DNA from: a virus
Taxonomy: Duplodnaviria > Caudoviricetes
DNA length: 57,725 nucleotides
Direction: 5' to 3' (one strand)
IMG/VR virus record: IMGVR_UViG_3300044703_000050
Span: 1-57,725 of that record
Made by a program: the position numbers and the translations under genes. The notes under the pieces were generated by a model. It searched no databases. It was not told the origin of the DNA and saw only the letters and a list, made by a program, of their open reading frames with translations. Below are positions 12,736 to 34,775 of this stretch, one piece after another; within the stretch, counting starts at the first letter, position 1, and each line of letters opens with the position of its first letter.

Positions 12736-12810
12736 TGGAGCGGGGAGCGGGAGTTGCACCCGCAACCTTCCGGCTGGATGCCGGATGCTCTGGATTTGAG
12801 CTATCCCCGC
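12736..12810 (-). tRNA. Atypical tRNA-Gly(TCC)
   Basis: Full cloverleaf: GCGGGGA-TA-GCTC-AAATCCA-GAGC-A-TCCGG-CATCCAG-CCGGA-AGGTT-GCGGG-TGCAACT-CCCGC-TCCCCGC-T-CCA; U73 discriminator. Confidence 0.85.
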
Positions 12811-25528: not shown

Positions 25529-26120
25529 AGCGTTCCCGGCGCGCCATGCGCGTTTCGTCGCCGAGTACCTGATCGACTTCAACGGCGCCAAGGCCGCGGT
25601 GCGGGCGGGCTATTCGGCGCGGCGGGCGAAGCAGACGGCGTCGGAGCTTTTGGCGCGCGACGAGATCGCGGCGGCGATCGCCGAGGGCCAGCAGCAGCTC
25701 GCGGCGCGGGCCACGGTCACGGTGGACGAGGTGGTGGCGGCGCTCACGACCGTACTGCGCGCCAACGTCCTGGACTACATGCGGGTCGGGCCCGAGGGCG
25801 AACCAATCGCCGATTTCAGCGAGATGACGCGCGAGCAGGCCGCGGCGGTGTCGGAGGTCACGGTCGAGGACTTTGTCGACGGCCGCGGTGACGATGCCCG
25901 CGACGTCAAGCGGGTGCGCTTCAAGCTGCACGACAAGCTGTCGGCGGCCGACAAACTGATGCGCCACCTCGGTGGCTACGCGCCGGTCCGCATCGGCAAC
26001 GCGCCAGGCGAGACGTTTAAGACCAGTCAGGCGGCGCATGAATTTACCGACGCGGAGCTCGTCGCTATCGCCCTCGGCGGCCGCGGCGGAGCTGCTCCGG
26101 AGGAGACGGGCGCGCGATAG
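25509..26120 (+). CDS. terS: Terminase small subunit
   Basis: RFVAEYLIDFNGAKAAVRAGYS...KLHDKLSAADKLMRHLG. Confidence 0.92.
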   Translation: MTESKAKAFPARHARFVAEYLIDFNGAKAAVRAGYSARRAKQTASELLARDEIAAAIAEGQQQLAARATVTVDEVVAALTTVLRANVLDYMRVGPEGEPIADFSEMTREQAAAVSEVTVEDFVDGRGDDARDVKRVRFKLHDKLSAADKLMRHLGGYAPVRIGNAPGETFKTSQAAHEFTDAELVAIALGGRGGAAPEETGAR

Positions 26121-27600
26121 CCTGATCGGCTTCGCCAATTCGGTAGAGATCCCGGGCAAACCCGTTGCCGACGATGAGGATGCCTGGCTGTTCAAGCCGG
26201 TGGAGACCACGGTCGCCGATCACCACCGGCTGATCATGCAGCACGCAGAGACGATCGCCTCGACGCCGTACGGTCGCGGCATGTTCTTCCTGCCGCCGGG
26301 CTCGGCCAAGTCCACTTACGGCTCGGTGCTGTTGCCGGCCTACAACATGGGGCGCTTCCCCGGCAACCGCCTGATCCTGACCACGTACGGCTCCGACCTC
26401 TCGCGCAAGCACGGCCGCCGGGCCCGCCAGATCGTCCGCTCACCGGCCTATGGCGCGATCTTCAACACCGGCCTGTCGCCGGACTCGAGCGCCGCCGACG
26501 AGTGGGCGCTGACCAACGGCTCCGAATACATGGCCGGCGGGATCCTTTCGGGGATCACCGGCAACCGCGCCAACGGCATCATCATCGATGATCCGGTGAA
26601 AGGCCGCGACGAGGCGGAGTCGGACGTCGTGCGCAAGCGCACGCTCGAGGCCTACGAGGACGACATCAAGACGCGGCTGCTGCCGGGCGGCTGGATGCTG
26701 CTCATTCAGACGCGCTGGCACGAGAACGACCTCGCCGGCTCGATCCTGCCGGAGAGCTGGAAGGGCGAGAGCGGGCTCATCCGGTGCCGCGACGGCTTCG
26801 ACTGGCTGGTGCTGTCGATCCCGGCCAAGGCCGAACGCGCCGACGATCCGCTCGGCCGCAAGCCCGGCGAGTATCTCTGGCCGGAATGGTTCGACCGCAA
26901 GCACTGGTCGCAGTTCGAGAGCAACGCGCGGACCTGGTCGGCGCTTTACCAGCAGCGGCCGGCGCCGGAGAGCGGCAACTATTTCCGGGCCGAGTGGCTG
27001 CGGCCTTACACGGACGCCCCGGCACGCGCGACTCTCACCGTCTACGGCGCCTCTGATTACGCCGTCACCGAAAAGGGCGGCGACTACACCGTGCACATCG
27101 TGGTCGGGGTCGATCCGGACAACCGGATGTACCTCCTCGACCTCTGGCGCCGGCAGACGGCGTCGGACGAATGGGTCGAGGCCTGGTGCGACCTGGTGCT
27201 GAAATGGAACCCGCTCGGCTGGGCCGAGGAGAAGGGCCAGATCAAGGCCGGCGTCGGCCCGTTCCGCGACAGCCGCGCGCTCACACGCAAGGCCTATTGC
27301 GCGGTGACAGCGTTTCCGACGCGTGGCGACAAGGCGGTGCGCGCACAATCGATCCGCGGCCGCATGGCACAGCTCGGGCTCTACGTGCCGACGAGCGCGC
27401 CCTGGGCGGCCGACCTGAAGACCGAGCTGATGAGCTTCCCGAACGGGCGGCATGACGACCAGACCGACACGCTCGGGCTGATCGGGCAACTCCTAGACGT
27501 GTTGATGCCCGGACCGAAGCCGAAGACGGCCGAAACCAACAAGCGCAGCGACTACGGCCCGGCGCAACGGTCGGACGAGAACAGCCTGCTGACACTTTAA
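26038..27600 (+). CDS. terL: Terminase large subunit (start uncertain)
   Basis: PPGSAKSTY Walker A, GIIIDDPVKG Walker B, QTRWHENDL, ASDYA nuclease Asp, FPNGRHDDQTD. Confidence 0.95.
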   Translation: MNLPTRSSSLSPSAAAAELLRRRRARDSLIGFANSVEIPGKPVADDEDAWLFKPVETTVADHHRLIMQHAETIASTPYGRGMFFLPPGSAKSTYGSVLLPAYNMGRFPGNRLILTTYGSDLSRKHGRRARQIVRSPAYGAIFNTGLSPDSSAADEWALTNGSEYMAGGILSGITGNRANGIIIDDPVKGRDEAESDVVRKRTLEAYEDDIKTRLLPGGWMLLIQTRWHENDLAGSILPESWKGESGLIRCRDGFDWLVLSIPAKAERADDPLGRKPGEYLWPEWFDRKHWSQFESNARTWSALYQQRPAPESGNYFRAEWLRPYTDAPARATLTVYGASDYAVTEKGGDYTVHIVVGVDPDNRMYLLDLWRRQTASDEWVEAWCDLVLKWNPLGWAEEKGQIKAGVGPFRDSRALTRKAYCAVTAFPTRGDKAVRAQSIRGRMAQLGLYVPTSAPWAADLKTELMSFPNGRHDDQTDTLGLIGQLLDVLMPGPKPKTAETNKRSDYGPAQRSDENSLLTL

Positions 27601-27987: not shown

Positions 27988-29925
27988 ATGCAGCTCGAGG
28001 TCGCCGCGTCCGAAGGCCGCAGCGTCGCGCGCCGCAAAAGCAGCGCCGACGAGAACCGATCGCAGTTCCTCCCGGTCGAGACTCTGCGCCGCCAATACCT
28101 CGACTATCTCACCTGCAAGGTCGCCGAGATCGAGGAGGCGAAGGAGGCGCGGCGCTATTACCACGGCGCCCACTACACCCCCGACGAAATCCGCGTCCTG
28201 CGCGCGCGCCGGCAGCCGCCGGTGGTGTGGAATCGCATCGCCCGCAAAATCAACGGCATCGTCGGCGTGGTGCAGAAGCAGCGCCGCGACCCGAAAGCCT
28301 TCCCGACCAAGCCGAAGGGCGAGGCCGGCGCCGAGATCGCGACCCAGACCATCCGCACGGTGCTCGACGGCAACGACTGGGAGACCCGCGACGAGTTTTG
28401 CCTGCGCCAGGCGGCGACCGAGGGCATCGGCGGCATCGAGCTGCGTCTGGTCGCGGGCGACCAGGGCGACCCCGACATCGAAATGTGGGAGGTGTTCGGC
28501 GACGACTTCTTCTACCAGCCCACTTCCGTCCGCTTCGACTTTTCAGACGCCCGCTACAAAGGAATCGCCAAGTGGGTCGACGTCGACGAGGCGGTCGAGC
28601 TCTTTCCCGACCGGGAAGAACTGATCCGCGGGCTGATCGAGTCCGGCTCCGACCTCACCACCAACGCCGACCGCGAATACAAGTGGATCAACACCACCAC
28701 GAAGCGCGTGCGGCTGATCGAGCACTGGTATAAGCACCGCGGCGTGTGGTGTTGGGCCTTCTACATCTCCAATCAGCTGCTGGAGGAGGGTGTCTCCCCG
28801 TTCAAGGACGAGCGCCGGCGCACCATCGCGCGCTTCATCATGTTCCGCGCCGCGGTCGACCAGGACGGCGACACCTACGGCTTTGTGCGCAACTTCAAGG
28901 GCCCGCAGGACGAGCTCAATCAGAGCCGCTCGAAGAGCAATCATGTCGCCAATTCCCGCCGGCTGATCGCCGACAAGGGGGCGGTTGACGACGTCGAAAC
29001 CGCGCGGCGGGAATGGGCGCGGCCTGACGGCTACATCGAGAAGAATCCCGGCAAGGAGATCGCGCCGGATAACACTACCGCCGATCTCGCCGCGCAGCTG
29101 CAGCGCGCGCAGACCGCGGCCGACGAGATCGAGAACTTCGCCAATACCAACATCGCCAACATGACCGACGGCGCGGTCGGCAACCTGTCGGGCGTCGCCA
29201 TCAACCTCCTGACCCAGCCAGGCCTCGCCGAGCTCGGGCCTTTCATCAAGGCCTATCGCGGCTGGAAGCTGCGGGTCTATCGCGCGGTCTTCAATCTTGC
29301 CCAGCAGTATTGGACGTCGGAGCGCTGGGTGCGGGTGACCGACGACGAGGACGTCGCTCATTTCATCCAGATCAACGGGCTCGACCTCGACGACTACGGC
29401 CGGCCGGCGATGGTCAATTACCTCGGCGCCCTCGACGTCGACATCAAGCTCGACGAAGGCCCCGACGAAGTGACGCAAATGCAGGATACCTACGACGTGA
29501 TCAAAAATGATCCGGCGGTGCCTGCCCAGGTCAAGATCGCGGTGGCGCCGATCCAGGGCAGCGTCAAGAAGCGCATCCTCGCCATGCTGCAGCCGCCGGT
29601 CGATCCGGCGCAGGCGATCATGAAGCGGCTCGCGCTCGAAGGCGCCTCCGCAGAGAACGAGAGCGAGCGGGCCCGCGCCGAGGAACGCCGCGCGCGTGCG
29701 GTGAAGGATGCCGCCGGTGCGGCCGCGCTGGTCGTCAAGGCCGGGCTCAACGGCGCCGAGGCCTACAAGGCCTCGATCGAAGCCGGGCAGGGCGGCGACA
29801 ACGGGCCGGGCGCTATCCAAGGCTTGCCCGACCAGGCACCGGGGCCAGGCGGTGCGCCCACTGCAGCGCCGATGCCGATGATCGCTCCGCCGGCGCCGCA
29901 GTTCCCGTTACCGTTCGGACCGTAG
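27988..29925 (+). CDS. Portal protein (P22-like)
   Basis: 645 aa after terL; YYHGAHYT, RRQPPVVWNRI, GPQDELN, SGVAIN, DVDIKLDEGP. Confidence 0.92.
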   Translation: MQLEVAASEGRSVARRKSSADENRSQFLPVETLRRQYLDYLTCKVAEIEEAKEARRYYHGAHYTPDEIRVLRARRQPPVVWNRIARKINGIVGVVQKQRRDPKAFPTKPKGEAGAEIATQTIRTVLDGNDWETRDEFCLRQAATEGIGGIELRLVAGDQGDPDIEMWEVFGDDFFYQPTSVRFDFSDARYKGIAKWVDVDEAVELFPDREELIRGLIESGSDLTTNADREYKWINTTTKRVRLIEHWYKHRGVWCWAFYISNQLLEEGVSPFKDERRRTIARFIMFRAAVDQDGDTYGFVRNFKGPQDELNQSRSKSNHVANSRRLIADKGAVDDVETARREWARPDGYIEKNPGKEIAPDNTTADLAAQLQRAQTAADEIENFANTNIANMTDGAVGNLSGVAINLLTQPGLAELGPFIKAYRGWKLRVYRAVFNLAQQYWTSERWVRVTDDEDVAHFIQINGLDLDDYGRPAMVNYLGALDVDIKLDEGPDEVTQMQDTYDVIKNDPAVPAQVKIAVAPIQGSVKKRILAMLQPPVDPAQAIMKRLALEGASAENESERARAEERRARAVKDAAGAAALVVKAGLNGAEAYKASIEAGQGGDNGPGAIQGLPDQAPGPGGAPTAAPMPMIAPPAPQFPLPFGP

Positions 29926-29980
29926 GGAAAAACCCAAACAATGAAATCCAGTAGTGCGCTCCCCTGCGTTGGAGACTCCT

Positions 29981-30502
29981 ATGTCAAATGATCTCGGACC
30001 GGCCAACGCGCCTAATCAGCTTTCAATCTTAGCTGCTATCCAGGCGCTGTTGAGCAATATGACCATCGCCGCCGGCTCTGCCATCATCGGGAAGGTCGGG
30101 ATCGACCAGACCGCCGGACAGAACGAAGTTATTCCGAACGCATCCGCGAGAGCGGGCGGCGTGCCATCGACGGCGCGGTTTGCTTCGGCAGCGGCCTCGA
30201 CCAACGCCACGCTGGTCAAGGGCAGCGCCGGTCGCATTTATCAGGCCAGTGGCAAGAACAACGCTGCCTATGACGTGTTCCTCGTGCTGTACGACAGCGC
30301 AGCCAGCCCGCCCGTGCCGGGCACCACCACAATTCGCAAGAAGATCGTCTGCCCCGCCGGTCAAGCCTTCGTCTATGACTGGCCGTCCGGCCTCTCGTTC
30401 GCGACCGGCATTGGCTACGCCTTCACCAAGTTGGTGGCGGACGCCGACACGACGGTGCTGGTCGCAGCCGATATCACCGGCTTCAATCTGGACTACGCGT
30501 GA
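29981..30502 (+). CDS. Putative beta-sandwich virion/decoration protein
   Basis: SAASTNATLVKGSAGRIY-like segment, GLSFATGIGYAFT; GGAG RBS. Confidence 0.7.
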   Translation: MSNDLGPANAPNQLSILAAIQALLSNMTIAAGSAIIGKVGIDQTAGQNEVIPNASARAGGVPSTARFASAAASTNATLVKGSAGRIYQASGKNNAAYDVFLVLYDSAASPPVPGTTTIRKKIVCPAGQAFVYDWPSGLSFATGIGYAFTKLVADADTTVLVAADITGFNLDYA

Positions 30503-30918
30503 TGTCGGGGTTCTCCAGGCCACCCCTCCCGTCCGTCACTCAGACCGTGGCCGCCGGCAGCGCTGTAGCCCTCACCAACGGCACCGGGAAAAGTGTCGCC
30601 AGCATCACCCTCACGCCCGGCACCTGGCTCCTCTTCGGGGCCGTAGGGTTCATCTACGCGGCCAACACGAGCTCAACACGCCTCCTTACCTCGTTATCCG
30701 CAACGGACAACGGCATCGATACCACCCCGGGCTTCTGGTTCAACGAGTTCACGGCAGCCCTCGTGCCAGGAGCGGGAAACCACCAGCACCGCCCGGTCGG
30801 TCCCGTCGTGGTGACGGTGACGGTCAACACCCCGTACTACCTCATCGCCATGGCGGCGTTCACGGTCGATGTGCTTACCGCATGCGGCGAGATCACGGCC
30901 GTCCGCATCGCCCCATGA
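30499..30918 (+). CDS. Putative beta-sandwich virion protein (fibre-tip-like)
   Basis: VASITLTPGTWLL...GEITAVRI. Confidence 0.7.
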   Translation: MMSGFSRPPLPSVTQTVAAGSAVALTNGTGKSVASITLTPGTWLLFGAVGFIYAANTSSTRLLTSLSATDNGIDTTPGFWFNEFTAALVPGAGNHQHRPVGPVVVTVTVNTPYYLIAMAAFTVDVLTACGEITAVRIAP

Positions 30919-30942
30919 AGTATCCCGGGCTGAGCAACCTTT

Positions 30943-31180
30943 TCATCCGCGCCTGACGATACGGGCGCGAAATCGACGGCCTGTTTCAGGTGGCCGCCAC
31001 GCCCTAACCCCTCTCCCTCACCCCTCATAGGAGGGAGATTATCGAGTTTCGTCCGCGCCTGACGACACAGACGCAGCCGCCCGCTCGCGGTTCTGCAAGA
31101 GCGCTCGTCCGCCCCACGATACGGGGCACCGCCACGTCCGGCGTCAAGGGACGTTTTCCGTAGTCACAACGACACTGTGA
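30943..31180 (+). ncRNA. Tandem H-type pseudoknot array in the scaffold 5' leader (predicted)
   Basis: Five contiguous units (31049-31180) plus two weaker upstream units share an S1a-L1-S2a-S1b-L3-S2b topology with different primary sequences. Confidence 0.7.
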
Positions 31181-31194
31181 AGGACTGACTGACA

Positions 31195-32316
31195 ATGGCT
31201 CAGAACGAGGACCAATTGCTGAAGGGTGCTATCGACGCAACGCAGAAAGAGATTTTTGCCGACGTGTTCGATAACGACGAAGCCGTCTTGGATGAAACCG
31301 GTGATCGTTCCATCGAAGAGATGGGCGATGGCTTGGAAGGTCAGGTCGAAGAGGATGAGGCGGGCGACGAGGCCGAGGACGCCGGGAAAGGCGTTGACGC
31401 CAAGGACGATGCCGAGACCAAAGACGATAAGGCCGCGGGTGACAAAGACCCGAACGACAAGACGGCGCGGGACGACAAGGGCAAGTTCACCACCAAGGAC
31501 GAGAAGGCCGAACCGGAGAAGGGGACCCAACCAGACCCCAAGGCCGGCAAGGATCATCGCGTACCGGTCGGTGAGCTGAAGAGCGAGCGCTCACAGCGCC
31601 AGGCGGCCGAGGAACGAGCGACAAAGGCCGAAGAACGCGCCGCGGCTGCAGAAGCCAAGGCGCAGGACGAGGTCGCCAAGCTCAACGCCAAGCTGGACGG
31701 TGTTCTCGCCGCACAGCGGCAGCCGCCACAGCCGGCCAAGACCGAAGAGGCCAAGACACCCGAACGCCCCGACATGTTCGCCGATCCGGAAGGATACGCG
31801 AAATGGGTCGAGGACCGGGCCAACGAACGGGTCGCTACGGTCGAGCGAAACATCTCCCAACGCTTTATTGAGCAGAGCTTTGCTCTCGCCCATGACGCGC
31901 ACAAGGAGGTCTTCGAGAAGGCCCATGCGGAGCTTACTTCCCTCAACCCGAAGAACCCCGCAGACGTCATCACGGTCCGCAACATCGCCAACGCGCCCAA
32001 TCCGGGCGCCGCGCTGATGAAGTGGCACCGCAATCGCGAGACCCTGCGCGAGGTCGGCCCCGATCCCGCCGCCTTCAAGCAGAAGCTCGCCGACGACACC
32101 CGTGCGGCCCTCATGAAAGACCCGGAATTCCGCAAGCAGCTCCTCGAGGACCTGCGCGCGGAGGCCACCGGGGGAGCCAACAGCGGCGATCCTGCTCGAA
32201 CCATCACGCGCCTGCCGAAATCCCTCAACGGCGCCGCCGGTAGCGGCTCCAACCAGGACGCCGTCTTCGACGGCTCGCAGCGCGCCATCTTCGACAACGT
32301 CTTCGCAGACCAGTAA
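31195..32316 (+). CDS. Capsid scaffolding protein
   Basis: Acidic N-terminus, RVPVGELKSER coiled coil, PDMFADPEGY; located between portal and capsid. Confidence 0.85.
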   Translation: MAQNEDQLLKGAIDATQKEIFADVFDNDEAVLDETGDRSIEEMGDGLEGQVEEDEAGDEAEDAGKGVDAKDDAETKDDKAAGDKDPNDKTARDDKGKFTTKDEKAEPEKGTQPDPKAGKDHRVPVGELKSERSQRQAAEERATKAEERAAAAEAKAQDEVAKLNAKLDGVLAAQRQPPQPAKTEEAKTPERPDMFADPEGYAKWVEDRANERVATVERNISQRFIEQSFALAHDAHKEVFEKAHAELTSLNPKNPADVITVRNIANAPNPGAALMKWHRNRETLREVGPDPAAFKQKLADDTRAALMKDPEFRKQLLEDLRAEATGGANSGDPARTITRLPKSLNGAAGSGSNQDAVFDGSQRAIFDNVFADQ

Positions 32317-32346
32317 TCGCGCCACCCGCTTCGGCCAAACCAAATG

Positions 32347-32369
32347 ACCCGCCGCAAGGCGGGTTTTTT
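32347..32369 (+). terminator. Rho-independent terminator between scaffold and capsid
   Basis: ACCCGCC-GCAA-GGCGGGT-TTTTT. Confidence 0.8.
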
Positions 32370-32416
32370 GTTGGGCGGACGGCTGCGCGCGACCCATCAC
32401 AGAAAGGGTCACGGCC

Positions 32417-33562
32417 ATGGCCGCCACCGCTACGAGTTCCAACAACAAGCTGATCAAGTTCAGCACTGACATCACGCGGGAATTCATCCGCGAGAACCCG
32501 CTGTCGCCCTACATGGGCCCGGGGATGACCAACATCATCCGGGTCATCAACGACCTCAAGCCCGGCGGCGAGCAGATCAACGTCCCGCTGATCGCGCGTC
32601 TGAAGAACACCGGCGTCGGCTCCGGCACGTTGCGCGGCAACGAAGAGGCGATCGACAACTATGGCTGCCGCGGCTGGATCGACTGGGCGCGCAACGCCAT
32701 CACGGTCACCAAGGCCGAGCAGCACAAGTCCTCGATCGACTTGTGGGCGCAGAACAAGCCGCTCCTGGCCGACTGGGGCAAGGAGCTGCAGCTGTTCGAG
32801 ATGGTGGATGCGTTCTACGCGCTGCCGTCGGAAACGGCGCCCGCCGGCCTCGGCTCCGCCGCCGGCCAGCGCGTCAACGGCATCCTGTTCGATGCAGCGA
32901 CCGCAGGCCAGCGCAACACCTGGGTCACCGACAACGCCGATCGCGTGCTGTTCGGCAATGCCGGCTCCAACCTCGTCGCGGGCAACTTCGCCTCGAGCTG
33001 CGCCAACGTCACCAACGCGATGACGCTGTCGGCCGCCATCATCACCCGCATCAAGCGGGCGGCGCGCAAGGCCAATCCGCGCATCAAGCCCTACAAGACC
33101 AAGAACGGCCGCGAATACTACGTGTTCCTGGTCGGCCAGGAGCAGTTCCGCGACTGCCAGAACGACACCACCATCATCACTGCCAACACCCAGGCGCGGG
33201 CGCGTGAAGGCGATGCGATCAACAAGAACCCGCTCTTCCAGGATGGTGACCTCCTCTACAACGGCGTCATCATCCGCGAGAACGTCGAGCAGTCGATCCG
33301 GCTGCCCACGTTCTACAAGACCGCGGGCTCGGGCAACGTGCAGATCGCGCCCGGGTTCTTCTGCGGACAGTCGGCGCTGGCGTGGCTCTGGGGCCAGGCT
33401 GCGTTGCCGACCTTCCTCAAGGAGGATGATTACGGCTTCATCCGCGGCACCGGCGTCGAGCTCGCCTACGGCATCATGAAGATCGCCAAGAAGAACCCGG
33501 CCGGCAACCTCAAGGAGTGGGGCGTGTTCACTTGGTTCGGCGCGGCGATCGCCGACACTTAA
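32417..33562 (+). CDS. Major capsid protein (DUF4043 / N4-gp56-like)
   Basis: PYMG, LRGNEEAI, KNPLFQDGDLLYNGVIIRE, DDYGF; size and position fit. Confidence 0.9.
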   Translation: MAATATSSNNKLIKFSTDITREFIRENPLSPYMGPGMTNIIRVINDLKPGGEQINVPLIARLKNTGVGSGTLRGNEEAIDNYGCRGWIDWARNAITVTKAEQHKSSIDLWAQNKPLLADWGKELQLFEMVDAFYALPSETAPAGLGSAAGQRVNGILFDAATAGQRNTWVTDNADRVLFGNAGSNLVAGNFASSCANVTNAMTLSAAIITRIKRAARKANPRIKPYKTKNGREYYVFLVGQEQFRDCQNDTTIITANTQARAREGDAINKNPLFQDGDLLYNGVIIRENVEQSIRLPTFYKTAGSGNVQIAPGFFCGQSALAWLWGQAALPTFLKEDDYGFIRGTGVELAYGIMKIAKKNPAGNLKEWGVFTWFGAAIADT

Positions 33563-34199: not shown

Positions 34200-34775
34200 A
34201 TGCTGAAGAAACTTCTGGCGGCCGCGGCCGCGCTCGCCGTGACCGCCGCGATCGCCGCGGCGGCTACATTCGCGATCGACGGCGGGCAGCCGGTGCTGCC
34301 GGGCAATGCGGGCCCGACCGTATTCCACTCCGGCGGCGCCACTCCGGTCGCCGTTTCAAGCGGCACCGATGCGACCGCCGTCAACACCGAAACCTACATC
34401 GTCGAGGTGTTCGTGCCGGCGAACGCGACGCTCACCGGCGTGTCGGTCCTGCATCTGGCGACCTCGACCGGCAACGTGCAGTTCTCGCTCGCCGATTCCG
34501 CCGGCGTGCCGATCGCTGCGGCGGTTACGGCCTCGACCGCGGCCACCGGCTCGGCCGCCTACCAGAAGGTGCCGTTCGCGGTCGCGTATGCCGCCAAGGG
34601 CCCCGCGAAATACTTCATCCTGATGCAGAACAGCGGCAGCAACCATTACCGGGCGCACGCGCTCGGCAATTTCGGGGCGGCCAAGAAGACCGGCGAGACC
34701 TACGGCACGTTCACCACGGTGACGCCGCCGACCACGTTCACCGCCGATCTCGGCCCGATCGCCGACGTCTACTGA
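34200..34775 (+). CDS. Putative virion protein with signal-peptide-like N-terminus
   Basis: MLKKLLAAAAALAVTAAIAAAA followed by a beta-rich body; AAGGAGG RBS. Confidence 0.75.
   Translation: MLKKLLAAAAALAVTAAIAAAATFAIDGGQPVLPGNAGPTVFHSGGATPVAVSSGTDATAVNTETYIVEVFVPANATLTGVSVLHLATSTGNVQFSLADSAGVPIAAAVTASTAATGSAAYQKVPFAVAYAAKGPAKYFILMQNSGSNHYRAHALGNFGAAKKTGETYGTFTTVTPPTTFTADLGPIADVY

Follow-up and report, generated by a model that had tools for sequence, protein, structure and literature searches.

Sequence comparison among related phages and prophages indicates that the untranslated gap of 277 nt before the scaffold-position gene of a soil phage is very probably a functional structured RNA on the sense strand. 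The gap would be the mRNA leader of that gene, folded as very small H-type pseudoknots, and its role is most likely cis-regulatory. The phage is a complete 57.7-kb IMG/VR genome, analysed here over its whole length of 57,725 nt (the window). Pseudoknots in cis-regulatory leaders are already known. What appears to be undescribed is a conserved series of 2-5 heterogeneous pseudoknots that occupies the leader of a phage scaffold gene all the way from the preceding stop codon to the Shine-Dalgarno (SD) sequence, and our literature search found no description of the element. One survey (PMC10690425) lists more than ten thousand structured RNA candidates from viruses and phages, five of them upstream of a major capsid family, and mentions the autoregulatory leader pseudoknot of T4 gene 32. 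The leader motif could be among its candidates, unnamed.

The array and its units

The head module is ordered TerL, portal, two small ORFs, the gap, an ORF of 373 aa and the major capsid protein. The 373-aa protein has a strongly acidic N-terminus and a centre rich in Ala, Glu and Lys. We found no Pfam or PHROG family match for it and no recognisable RNA-binding domain; its relatives occur at 13 viral loci. ARAGORN found no tmRNA or tRNA in the gap, and the phage has only a tRNA-Asp (5160) and a tRNA-Gly (12736). A promoter and terminator scan of 30400-31400 returned no terminator. One promoter-like site was seen in that scan, on the minus strand.

Type A units consist of a 5′ (U)CGU, a linker of 1-3 nt, a variable stem of 4-7 bp (S2) and the 7-nt loop ACGAYAC, whose first nucleotides would pair back to the 5′ CGU. 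Type B units would use CGC/GCG in place of CGU/ACG for this S1 (tertiary) helix. In type C the conserved helix would lie on the 3′ side, with a variable stem and a loop, GCCGCCR, that pairs with a downstream GGCG. Units were sought with a strict scanner (S1 of at least 3 bp, S2 of at least 5 bp, L1 of 1-2, L2 of 0 and L3 of 2-6 nt, at most one G.U per stem, mismatches disallowed) and with R1, a covariance model made from 24 units. The features are as follows.

30943..30969, + strand: degenerate type A unit, stem CGCGCCTG/CGGGCGCG, loop ACGATA
30994..31004, + strand: truncated copy CCGCCACGCCC, the first half of the 31130 unit without the 3′ partner strands
31012..31038, + strand: plain hairpin TCTCCCTC / GAGGGAGA, 8 bp, 11-nt loop (inverted repeat)
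31049..31074, + strand: type A pseudoknot unit TCGT-cc-GCGCCTG-ACGA-ca-CAGACGC, one C.A mismatch in S2
31075..31103, + strand: H-type-compatible unit AGCCGC-c-CGCTC-GCGGTT-ctgcaa-GAGCG (strict scan)
31105..31127, + strand: canonical type A unit TCGT-cc-GCCCC-ACGA-tac-GGGGC (strict scan, R1)
31130..31153, + strand: type B unit (GCG/CGC variant) CGCC-a-CGTCC-GGCG-tcaag-GGACG (strict scan, homologues)
31159..31180, + strand: last type A unit CGT-ag-TCACA-ACG-acac-TGTGA, its 3′ strand directly adjoining the SD
31181..31197, + strand: Shine-Dalgarno AGGA (31181-31184), 10-nt spacer and ATG (31195)
31195..32316, + strand: scaffold-position gene, 373 aa, flanked by the portal module and the major capsid protein

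The five main units had been proposed, with coordinates and pairings, in a sequence-only reading of this DNA; we checked the sequence base by base and all five stand. That the array ends at the SD is likewise correct, since AGGA at 31181-31184 follows the 3′ strand of unit 31159. The same reading described the units as alike in topology and unlike in sequence, which they are, but they do not form one uniform class: the array comprises three type A units plus a degenerate copy, one type B unit, and unit 31075. It had also listed two weaker units. One of them, 30943-30969, is the degenerate type A copy; the other, 30969-30996, was not recovered as a pseudoknot.

Units 31049, 31105 and 31159 (type A) and 31130 (type B) are the window's members of the family that we propose. 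They share a sense-strand 5′ CGN, 1-5 nt, a stem and a loop N′CG(A)NA, directly 5′ of the scaffold-position gene. R1 matches unit 31105 at 31102-31130 (34.2 bits, E = 1.2e-6) and unit 31159 at 31155-31183 (27.2 bits, E = 1.3e-4), and gives a weak match to unit 31049 at 31046-31077 (13.9 bits, E = 1). One relative (L091) has a positional homologue of unit 31049 with the mismatch at another stem position, and also a stem identical to that of unit 31159 with the loop ACGAAAC. Unit 31130 has homologues in L167, L188, L189, L191 and others, and belongs to a conserved module in which a type B unit, in penultimate place, is followed by the last type A unit and the SD. It carries U-A in place of C-G at the third position of S2. 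Its sequence is compatible with pairing as a conserved GCG/CGC variant. Unit 31075 has no homologous unit among the relatives examined, and so no comparative support; in the centroid fold it forms only the nested AGCCGC/GCGGTT hairpin.

Upstream of the intact array, unit 30943 is a direct repeat, 86% identical to 31047-31074. Its 5′ element, TCAT, has one S1 mismatch and its 8-bp stem is good; R1 misses it at E <= 10. The repeat search gave CCGCCACGCCC at 30994-31004 as 91% identical to 31129-31139. Between these degenerate copies and the intact array lies the hairpin of 31012-31038, which is present in both the MFE and centroid folds and was not called a terminator.

Tiling, conservation and covariation

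The strict scan recovers four of the five main units, back to back from 31075 to 31180; unit 31049 fails it because of the S2 mismatch alone. The claim that such tiling exceeds chance withstood dinucleotide shuffling, as none of 2000 shuffles reached four non-overlapping strict H-type units (maxima of three for 30919-31194 and two for 31046-31186). Strict units do occur genome-wide at about 3 per kb on either strand, and a second cluster of four within 110 nt lies at 34218, in an Ala-rich coding stretch of GCC/GCG repeats. The tiling in the window is therefore only suggestive by itself, and is made solid by the strand bias and covariation of the homologues. Under nested folding the gap is no more stable than its shuffles (z = -0.94 sense, -1.06 antisense), so thermodynamics alone cannot single out the gap.

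The comparison set holds 56 non-redundant leaders from related phages and Rhizobiales prophages. Their unit number differs between relatives, with 2-5 units of 22-29 nt. In 390 kb of related loci R1 gave 65 matches at E <= 10, 62 of them on the sense strand. Hairpin-and-loop units of type A in the last 200 nt of the 56 leaders number 85 unique on the sense strand against three on the antisense strand; for type C there are 45 sense units, with 25 distinct stems, against one antisense. Generic H-type topologies are also in excess (85 against 17.9 +/- 4.9 in dinucleotide shuffles). At 31 Rhizobiales prophage loci, 19 of 21 matches (E <= 0.13) fall on the sense strand at a distance of 925-1397 nt 5′ of the capsid gene; the prophages come from strains of Bradyrhizobium, Rhizobium, Sinorhizobium, Neorhizobium, Mesorhizobium and Xanthobacter. 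A DNA pattern scan of IMG/VR, independent of any protein, returned 80 loci. Ten have R1 matches, and eight of these show a portal gene or tRNA, the gap, an ORF of 280-360 aa and an ORF of about 385 aa, in that order.

These counts bear on the reading in which the array is a product of chance or a DNA-level feature, i.e., GC-rich tiling, binding sites in double-stranded DNA or a small ORF. The background of strict units and the other four-unit cluster speak for it, as does the frame 31008-31163, which is open from stop to stop. That frame contains no ATG, GTG or TTG and is absent from the ORF list, and we rejected it as a small ORF for want of a start codon. Against chance stand the shuffles of the gap; the strand ratio of 85:3, the variation in unit number and the excess of H-type topologies count against chance and DNA features alike, and the reading is largely refuted. 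DNA sites or codons would not keep the complementarity of changing stems, in which G.U pairs fall on the sense strand. We consider this reading to have almost no chance of being right.

Pairing was counted for each helix. In type A, 97.4% of S2 cells are paired, with double-sided changes in all five pairs (61 matches). For S1, the 5′ element is CGT in 51 of 59 units with an ACG loop and CGC in 18 of 26 units with a GCG loop (Fisher p = 1.3e-11, in a test that ignores shared ancestry). A swap of C:G to G:C occurs in two leaders (L166 and L170), which have 5′ CGGT with the loop ACCA. S1 is only 3-4 bp and mostly invariant, so that its covariation rests on few substitution classes, and there are counter-examples: L186 has 5′ TCGA with the loop ACGT, and L034 and L007 have ACGT loops with 5′ TCGT unchanged. 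Column-based S1 counts on the covariance-model alignments (72-77% paired) are an under-report, since linker length varies; a position-tolerant count was used for this reason. The earlier claim that both stems change in a compensatory way is true across phages, but between the window's own units S1 is mostly conserved. These patterns support selection for pairing in both helices of type A. In type B, 79.6% of cells pair, against 30-46% with the partners slid; covariation there is not significant alone (three double-sided cells, 92 of 500 shuffles as good). The loop-tail helix of type C is invariant. The CG core, the unpaired A in L3 or the loop, and the ACGAYAC loop are kept across distant phages.

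Pairing of a loop with the CGU of the next unit was considered and rejected, as the first units inspected have their own 5′ CGU after the upstream stop codon. The last units inspected (not a systematic count) have no CGU 3′ of them, only the SD.

Specificity was gauged on whole genomes. In five whole host genomes (30 Mb), with 150 of 1286-2141 first-look candidates per genome scored, the single R1 match at E <= 0.05 was the prophage leader. In five whole genomes of related phages, four of five matches (E <= 0.02) lie in head-module leaders, all above 20 bits; the fifth, of 17.5 bits in G006, falls outside that phage's head locus (L016). For the type C DNA pattern in IMG/VR, the 80 returned loci were chance matches in GC-rich coding DNA with no clear arrays (descriptor background 0.14 per kb), and a pattern of this kind gave 26 matches in three host genomes against 21 in the reversed control.

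The suggestion that the array is not a named RNA family agrees with Rfam 15, which has no match at gathering score in the whole window. At E <= 10 in 30700-31400 only mir-1200 touches the end of the gap (minus strand, 31181-31214, 14.5 bits), and the loci of eight relatives yielded nothing beyond a weak osmY match, which lies outside the leader. A BLASTN of 29900-32400 against GenBank phages found no match. The capsid protein gave six distant GenBank phage records by TBLASTN (27-31% identity). R1 finds nothing at E <= 10 in two of them, Rhizobium phage RHph_Y1_10 and CBW1004C-Prop1; the capsid gene of CBW1004C-Prop1 has P22-like neighbours.

A cis-regulatory leader and competing readings

The gene 3′ of the leader is the scaffold-position ORF in every case. 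Its upstream neighbour varies, and can be the portal gene (L045, L049), unknown small ORFs, a tRNA-Gly (L062) or, in the window, a tail-fibre-like ORF. The chain typically begins a few nt beyond the preceding stop codon and extends up to the SD or takes it in. Units were detected in 40 leaders, and in 25 of these the last unit ends at most 22 nt from the start codon (hand tally). In 7 of the 35 leaders with an SD-like motif its 3′ strand overlaps that motif, and in 7 more it ends 0-3 nt before it; as bulged stems are missed, these SD-distance counts are a lower bound.

In our preferred explanation the last unit would control ribosome access, and the units before it would jointly present multivalent binding sites to a factor specific for the conserved CG and ACGAYAC features. 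The bound factor would determine how well the scaffold (and capsid) message is translated, how long it lasts, or both. We think it probable that the leader exerts post-transcriptional control of scaffold and capsid expression; for the whole explanation, a chain of pseudoknots that gates the ribosome and also gathers a factor, our confidence is only a little better than even. The factor is most likely phage-encoded or part of the general machinery, because the motif travels with the head module and was undetected among the candidates scored elsewhere in five host genomes. CsrA and ProQ families were not found in the phage.

The adjacent scaffold protein is the leading single candidate for this factor, and scaffold autoregulation via the leader is plausible; that the scaffold protein itself is the ligand we would still call unlikely. 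The most specific form of the idea makes the chain an autoregulation operator, in which free scaffold dimers or tetramers would bind units cooperatively and lock the last pseudoknot over the SD. The stems would then be kept different so that the repeats are not lost by recombination. If true, the operator would couple scaffold (and capsid) synthesis to procapsid assembly. We hold it to be doubtful.

A passive role without a dedicated regulator is the main competitor. Here the array would be a stabiliser or processing cassette, either a 5′ end that is compact and resists nucleases, left when an endonuclease cuts the long late transcript, or a barrier to Rho and RNases along an extended untranslated region, raising scaffold and capsid mRNA over portal and terminase mRNA. 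The way in which the array fills the gap from stop codon to SD fits this reading, as does its position before the highest-copy genes and its recurrence when another gene intervenes: in L045-L048 an Ig/Hoc-like gene lies between scaffold and capsid, and the capsid gene there has its own units. A strong, terminator-like hairpin with T6 lies at 32347-32372 between the scaffold and capsid genes; such hairpins follow the scaffold gene at 7 of 33 loci, the window included, and would with the array bracket a discrete message. A roadblock, however, needs no invariant CG core, loop A or ACGAYAC loop, since simple GC hairpins would suffice, and we judge a purely passive role unlikely.

The same hairpin could instead point to a cis antitermination RNA of the put kind, in which the folded leader would modify RNA polymerase to read through it. 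Yet 26 of the 33 loci have arrays (or related arrays) without such a terminator, a mid-operon site is unusual for these elements, and the reading does not explain why the last unit overlaps the SD. We regard antitermination as very improbable. Repeated pseudoknots with conserved recognition features and diverse stems would also suit multivalent protein capture by a processed non-coding RNA or decoy, whose released units would sequester a protein in the manner of a type III antitoxin or an anti-defence sponge. The repeats are not near-identical, the downstream gene has no family match, and the array keeps a fixed place before the start codon of the scaffold gene, with its last unit involving the SD, which indicates action in cis. 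A decoy is accordingly improbable in our view.

Finally, the units resemble in size and topology the smallest pseudoknot riboswitches that sequester an SD, and the conserved CG core, together with the unpaired A kept in L3, could be read as part of tandem small-molecule aptamers that close off the SD once ligand is bound. Rfam has no riboswitch model that matches, even at E <= 10; only the last of up to five heterogeneous units touches the expression platform; the scaffold gene offers no metabolic logic; and the motif was undetected in host metabolic genes (five genomes, 150 first-look candidates scored in each). We find a riboswitch highly improbable.

As a cis-regulatory leader, the array gives studies of post-transcriptional tuning of scaffold and capsid output in tailed phages an RNA target that is concrete and can be mutated. 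It is directly testable, since it occurs in prophages of culturable strains (Bradyrhizobium to Xanthobacter). The type A unit would be one of the smallest H-type pseudoknots in nature for which both helices have support; it could serve work on RNA folding and be used as a compact regulatory part.

Comparison with known systems

A close precedent in a phage is T4 gene 32, which has an H-type pseudoknot in its 5′ leader as a translational operator upstream of the SD, for a product needed stoichiometrically. The present element likewise places H-type pseudoknots in the leader of a phage gene, and the product of that gene too is required stoichiometrically. In T4 one pseudoknot is the nucleus from which protein binds cooperatively along an unstructured A/U-rich tract, and the protein is an ssDNA-binding protein. 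In contrast, the leaders studied here have 2-5 heterogeneous GC-rich units, no unstructured tract and a last unit that touches the SD, and the downstream gene is in scaffold position; the window's leader has five units and is GC-rich and structured up to the SD.

P22 scaffolding protein reportedly regulates its own synthesis post-transcriptionally, and we know of no RNA operator defined for this. The gene position is alike, with portal, scaffold and coat in a head module that lacks a protease, so that P22 supplies a precedent for adjusting scaffold synthesis at a post-transcriptional step.

Tandem short pseudoknots are also found in ToxI, the RNA of type III toxin-antitoxin systems, in which near-identical repeats of 34-45 nt precede a toxin gene and are cut out by the toxin; phages carry mimics of such antitoxin RNAs. 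Each ToxI unit can bind one protein. The units described here differ in being 22-29 nt, sequence-diverse and placed in an mRNA leader that ends at an SD, and the direct repeats within the gap are all 16-28 nt long, with 81-91% identity. A search for PF13958 (ToxN/AbiQ) gave no match in the phage, and the control genomes were silent too.

Very small folds (H-type at the SD), a tandem arrangement and a loop beginning ACGA recall preQ1-I, SAM-II and guanidine-II, but the gene context here is non-metabolic and no Rfam model matches. Guanidine-II (mini-ykkC) has two hairpins closed on ACGR tetraloops, while our loops are of 6-9 nt (ACGAYAC). In preQ1-I a 3′ A-rich tail pairs into the loop; the pairing tail of type A is 5′ and is CGU.

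Consecutive pseudoknots are known from the 3′ upstream pseudoknot domain of tobamoviruses and from PK2-PK4 of tmRNA. A recent preprint describes ncRNA arrays of UG27 reverse transcriptases in prophages, with units of about 150 nt (bioRxiv 10.64898/2026.09.22.753630). All of these, like the array in the window, place several structurally alike and sequence-diverse pseudoknotted units in a row. They differ in unit size, partners and location, which is a 3′ UTR in tobamoviruses, the body of tmRNA and reverse-transcriptase loci for UG27, whereas the present array has no reverse-transcriptase context and leads into a scaffold-position gene.

Setting and tiling of the scaffold leader

The record is one complete virus of 57,725 bp, and its putative pseudoknot units lie in the 277-nt gap upstream of a scaffold-position gene. 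The order of features around this gap is as follows.

25972-27600, plus strand: large terminase
27988-29925, plus strand: portal
29954-30502, plus strand: small ORF
30499-30918, plus strand: small ORF of 139 aa, weakly similar to the C-terminal end of a tail-fibre PHROG (E = 5.6e-8)
between 30918 and 31195, plus strand: gap of 277 nt
31195-32316, plus strand: scaffold-position ORF of 373 aa
32347-32372: terminator-like element between the scaffold stop (32316) and the capsid start (32417), with a CCCGCC/GGCGGG stem, a 4-nt loop and T6
32417-33562, plus strand: major capsid protein (phrog_334)

The place of the tail-fibre-like domain, between portal and scaffold, is unusual. The 373-aa ORF is without a PHROG or Pfam match. 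Its product is very acidic at the N-terminus and rich in Ala, Glu and Lys in the centre, a composition compatible with a scaffold, and the assignment is made from gene position alone. The host is most likely a member of the Rhizobiales, since relatives of the capsid sit in prophages of Bradyrhizobium, Xanthobacteraceae, Rhizobium, Sinorhizobium, Neorhizobium, Mesorhizobium and similar bacteria.

Checked base by base, the five main units proposed by the sequence-only reading (starting at 31049, 31075, 31105, 31130 and 31159) are exact in position and content. A strict scanner that disallows mismatches recovers four of them back to back (31075-31180) and misses unit 31049 solely through a single C.A mismatch. 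As to chance, 0/2000 dinucleotide shuffles of the gap gave four units, but strict H-type patterns are common across the genome (approximately 3 per kb, both strands) and form one other cluster of four, at 34218 within 34200-34300. That cluster lies in a GCC/GCG-rich stretch just 3′ of the start codon of ORF 34200-34775, where the product is Ala-rich and signal-peptide-like. We rejected it as a further array; it is a scanner false positive in which GC-rich repeats imitate the H-type pattern. The nested folding energy of the gap is ordinary (z = -0.94). Because of this background, the second cluster and the ordinary folding energy, the tiling judged on the window alone is suggestive, short of proof.

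Type A, B and C units in related leaders

With the capsid and scaffold proteins as queries, we gathered 49 IMG/VR loci, and one motif recurs in their pre-scaffold gaps. In these type A units, (T)TCGT is followed by a spacer of two or three bases and then by a hairpin whose 4-7-bp stem varies in sequence and encloses the loop ACGAYAC; an A usually comes after the 3′ strand. A covariance model built from 24 of them (R1) returned 65 matches at E ≤ 10 over 390 kb, 62/65 on the sense strand and nearly all immediately upstream of the scaffold-position ORF. In 31 prophage loci, 19/21 matches with E ≤ 0.13 have sense orientation and precede the capsid start by 925-1397 nt. A protein-independent DNA-pattern scan of IMG/VR returned 80 loci, ten of which have R1 matches; eight of the ten share the arrangement of a portal-size ORF (tRNA-Gly in L062), the gap, a 280-360-aa ORF and an ~385-aa ORF. 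The remaining two are chance matches within coding DNA. In L062 (7136-7241, minus strand of the locus) a tRNA-Gly(tcc) gene stops 2 nt short of the scaffold leader's first pseudoknot unit; the tRNA-Gly(tcc) of the window phage is situated elsewhere (12736-12810).

Within the window R1 matches 31102-31130 (34.2 bits), 31155-31183 (27.2 bits) and, weakly, 31046-31077 (13.9 bits). It does not match the degenerate copy at 30943, and no homologue of unit 31075 was found among the relatives. The segment 30941-30968 is 86% identical to 31047-31074, and 30994-31004 repeats half of unit 31130. An 8-bp plain hairpin follows at 31012-31038, its 3′ arm within a AGGAGGGAGA run that has no start codon after it. 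The segment 30941-31005 resembles a degraded second copy of the array, comprising a type A unit with TCAT and half a type B unit; over the first 106 nt of the gap (30941-31046), this copy appears to be followed by an insertion.

The strand bias is strong with a hairpin descriptor (stem of at least 4 bp, loop containing RCGNNA) that demands no 5′ element: the last 200 nt before the scaffold start codon in 56 non-redundant leaders hold 85 unique units sense vs 3 antisense. Generic strict H-type patterns number 85 in the same 56 leaders vs 17.9 ± 4.9 in dinucleotide shuffles; the 63 found antisense do not serve as an independent control, since reversing and complementing a pseudoknot yields another. 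In a 61-row model alignment the hairpin stem, S2, is 97.4% paired, G.U pairs occur, and all five pairs vary on both sides. The alignment is itself fitted to S2, so the argument for this helix rests on the strand asymmetry and the diversity of the stems.

The key claim of the sequence-only reading was S1, a second helix between the loop and the 5′ flank. A CGN triplet stands 1-5 nt before the stem in 82/85 descriptor units (summed over the table), being CGT in 51/59 units with an ACG loop and CGC in 18/26 with a GCG loop (Fisher p = 1.3e-11, treating as independent units that are not). In L166 and L170 a 5′ CGGT accompanies the loop ACCA, with the central C:G swapped to G:C, and in the last unit of the Rhizobium group (CGTG ... 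CACG) S1 is longer at its other end. Counter-examples exist: L186 has TCGA with ACGT, and L034 and L007 have ACGT loops yet an unchanged TCGT. In the leaders that we read, without counting, every first unit has its own 5′ CGU just past the upstream stop codon and the last units are followed by the SD, not by CGU; thus the loop is predicted to pair with the flank of its own unit, which is an H-type fold. In that fold S1 would span 3-4 bp, L1 would measure 1-3 nt, L2 would be 0, and L3, which contains an invariant A, would be ~3 nt long.

Type B is the GCG/CGC form, represented in the window by unit 31130 (CGCC-a-CGTCC-GGCG-tcaag-GGACG). It is kept as the penultimate unit in L167, L175, L184, L188, L189, L191, L195, L086 and others, followed by the last type A unit and then the SD. 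Type B helices are 79.6% paired vs 30-46% with the partners slid. Their covariation is not significant (three double-sided cells, one being the window's U-A). Type C has a variable stem, the loop GCCGCCR and GGCG 3-7 nt downstream, with 45 sense vs 1 antisense and 25 different stems. Three occur per leader in Rhizobium, Sinorhizobium and Mesorhizobium prophages, and one in L021, L028 and L044. A loop-tail helix in type C is suggested by complementarity only, since its sequence is invariant.

Position before the head genes and specificity

The upstream neighbour of the leader may be the portal, unknown small ORFs, a tail-fibre-like ORF or a tRNA, whereas the downstream neighbour is invariably the scaffold-position gene. 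A 166-aa Ig/Hoc-like (decoration-like) gene separates the scaffold-position gene from the capsid gene in L045-L048 (L045 3330-3830), where two type A units precede the capsid gene as well (L045 3850-3906). Judging from this gene order, the array serves as a leader for head genes required in high copy and does not form a 3′ element of whatever gene precedes it. By our own tally, 25/40 leaders with a descriptor-detected unit have their last unit ending ≤ 22 nt from the start codon. Of 35 leaders, 7 have an SD-like motif overlapped by the 3′ strand of this unit, and 7 more have that strand 0-3 nt short of the motif; these counts are a lower bound, as several last units with a bulged stem were missed. 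SD-like motifs double as stem strands in L036 (GAGGA), L049 (GAGGG) and L181 (GGAG).

Five whole host genomes totalling 30 Mb, with 150 of the 1286-2141 first-look candidates scored in each, yielded one R1 match at E ≤ 0.05, which is the prophage leader. Among the matches with E ≤ 0.02 in five complete genomes of related phages, 4/5 are in head-module leaders, all four above 20 bits; the fifth (17.5 bits) is in G006, outside its L016 head locus. Rfam gave no family match for the gap even at E ≤ 10, none at gathering score for the whole window and none at E ≤ 1 for the loci of eight relatives. Two named phages with distant capsid homologues, Rhizobium phage RHph_Y1_10 and Phage CBW1004C-Prop1, gave no R1 match at E ≤ 10. 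The latter has, in its portal-scaffold gap (L318 2058-2083), a CCCGCC/GGCGGG hairpin with a T-run that closely resembles the window's element at 32347-32372, without pseudoknot units.

Possible function and known systems

These comparisons establish a conserved, strand-specific chain of small, pseudoknot-capable units, the last of which contacts the ribosome-binding site. What the sequence-only reading observed is confirmed and extended; its structural interpretation is largely right and its putative functional one plausible. Most likely, the chain would act on the scaffold gene and those behind it, at the level of translation initiation and/or message lifetime. Alternatively, the chain could be a riboswitch, a decoy RNA released from the leader, a cassette for processing or passive stabilisation, or a put-like antiterminator whose target would be the terminator-like hairpin at 32347-32372. 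A near-identical element occupies the equivalent position in L034, L042, L180, L188, L189 and L191 (7/33 printed loci, including the window). A strong terminator-like element right before the most highly needed head gene is odd.

For such control, a factor may recognise the invariant CG core together with the loop ACGAYAC, binding several units simultaneously. The motif moves with the phage module among hosts placed in different classes (MAG placements may be unreliable) and is undetected elsewhere in host genomes, so the putative factor probably either comes from the phage or belongs to the general machinery. Homologues of CsrA and ProQ are missing from the phage.

Leader pseudoknots that regulate translation are a known kind of element. 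We found no description, in Rfam or the literature searched, of a conserved series of heterogeneous pseudoknots, 22-29 nt each, running from stop codon to SD before a phage scaffold gene. A 2023 catalogue holds more than ten thousand candidate viral structured RNAs, and its supplements may include the scaffold-leader element, unnamed (PMC10690425). The most economical candidate for the factor would be the adjacent scaffold protein, but it is acidic, and it has no known RNA-binding domain. The scaffolding protein of P22 reportedly autoregulates post-transcriptionally, and would be a precedent for a scaffold protein in this role.
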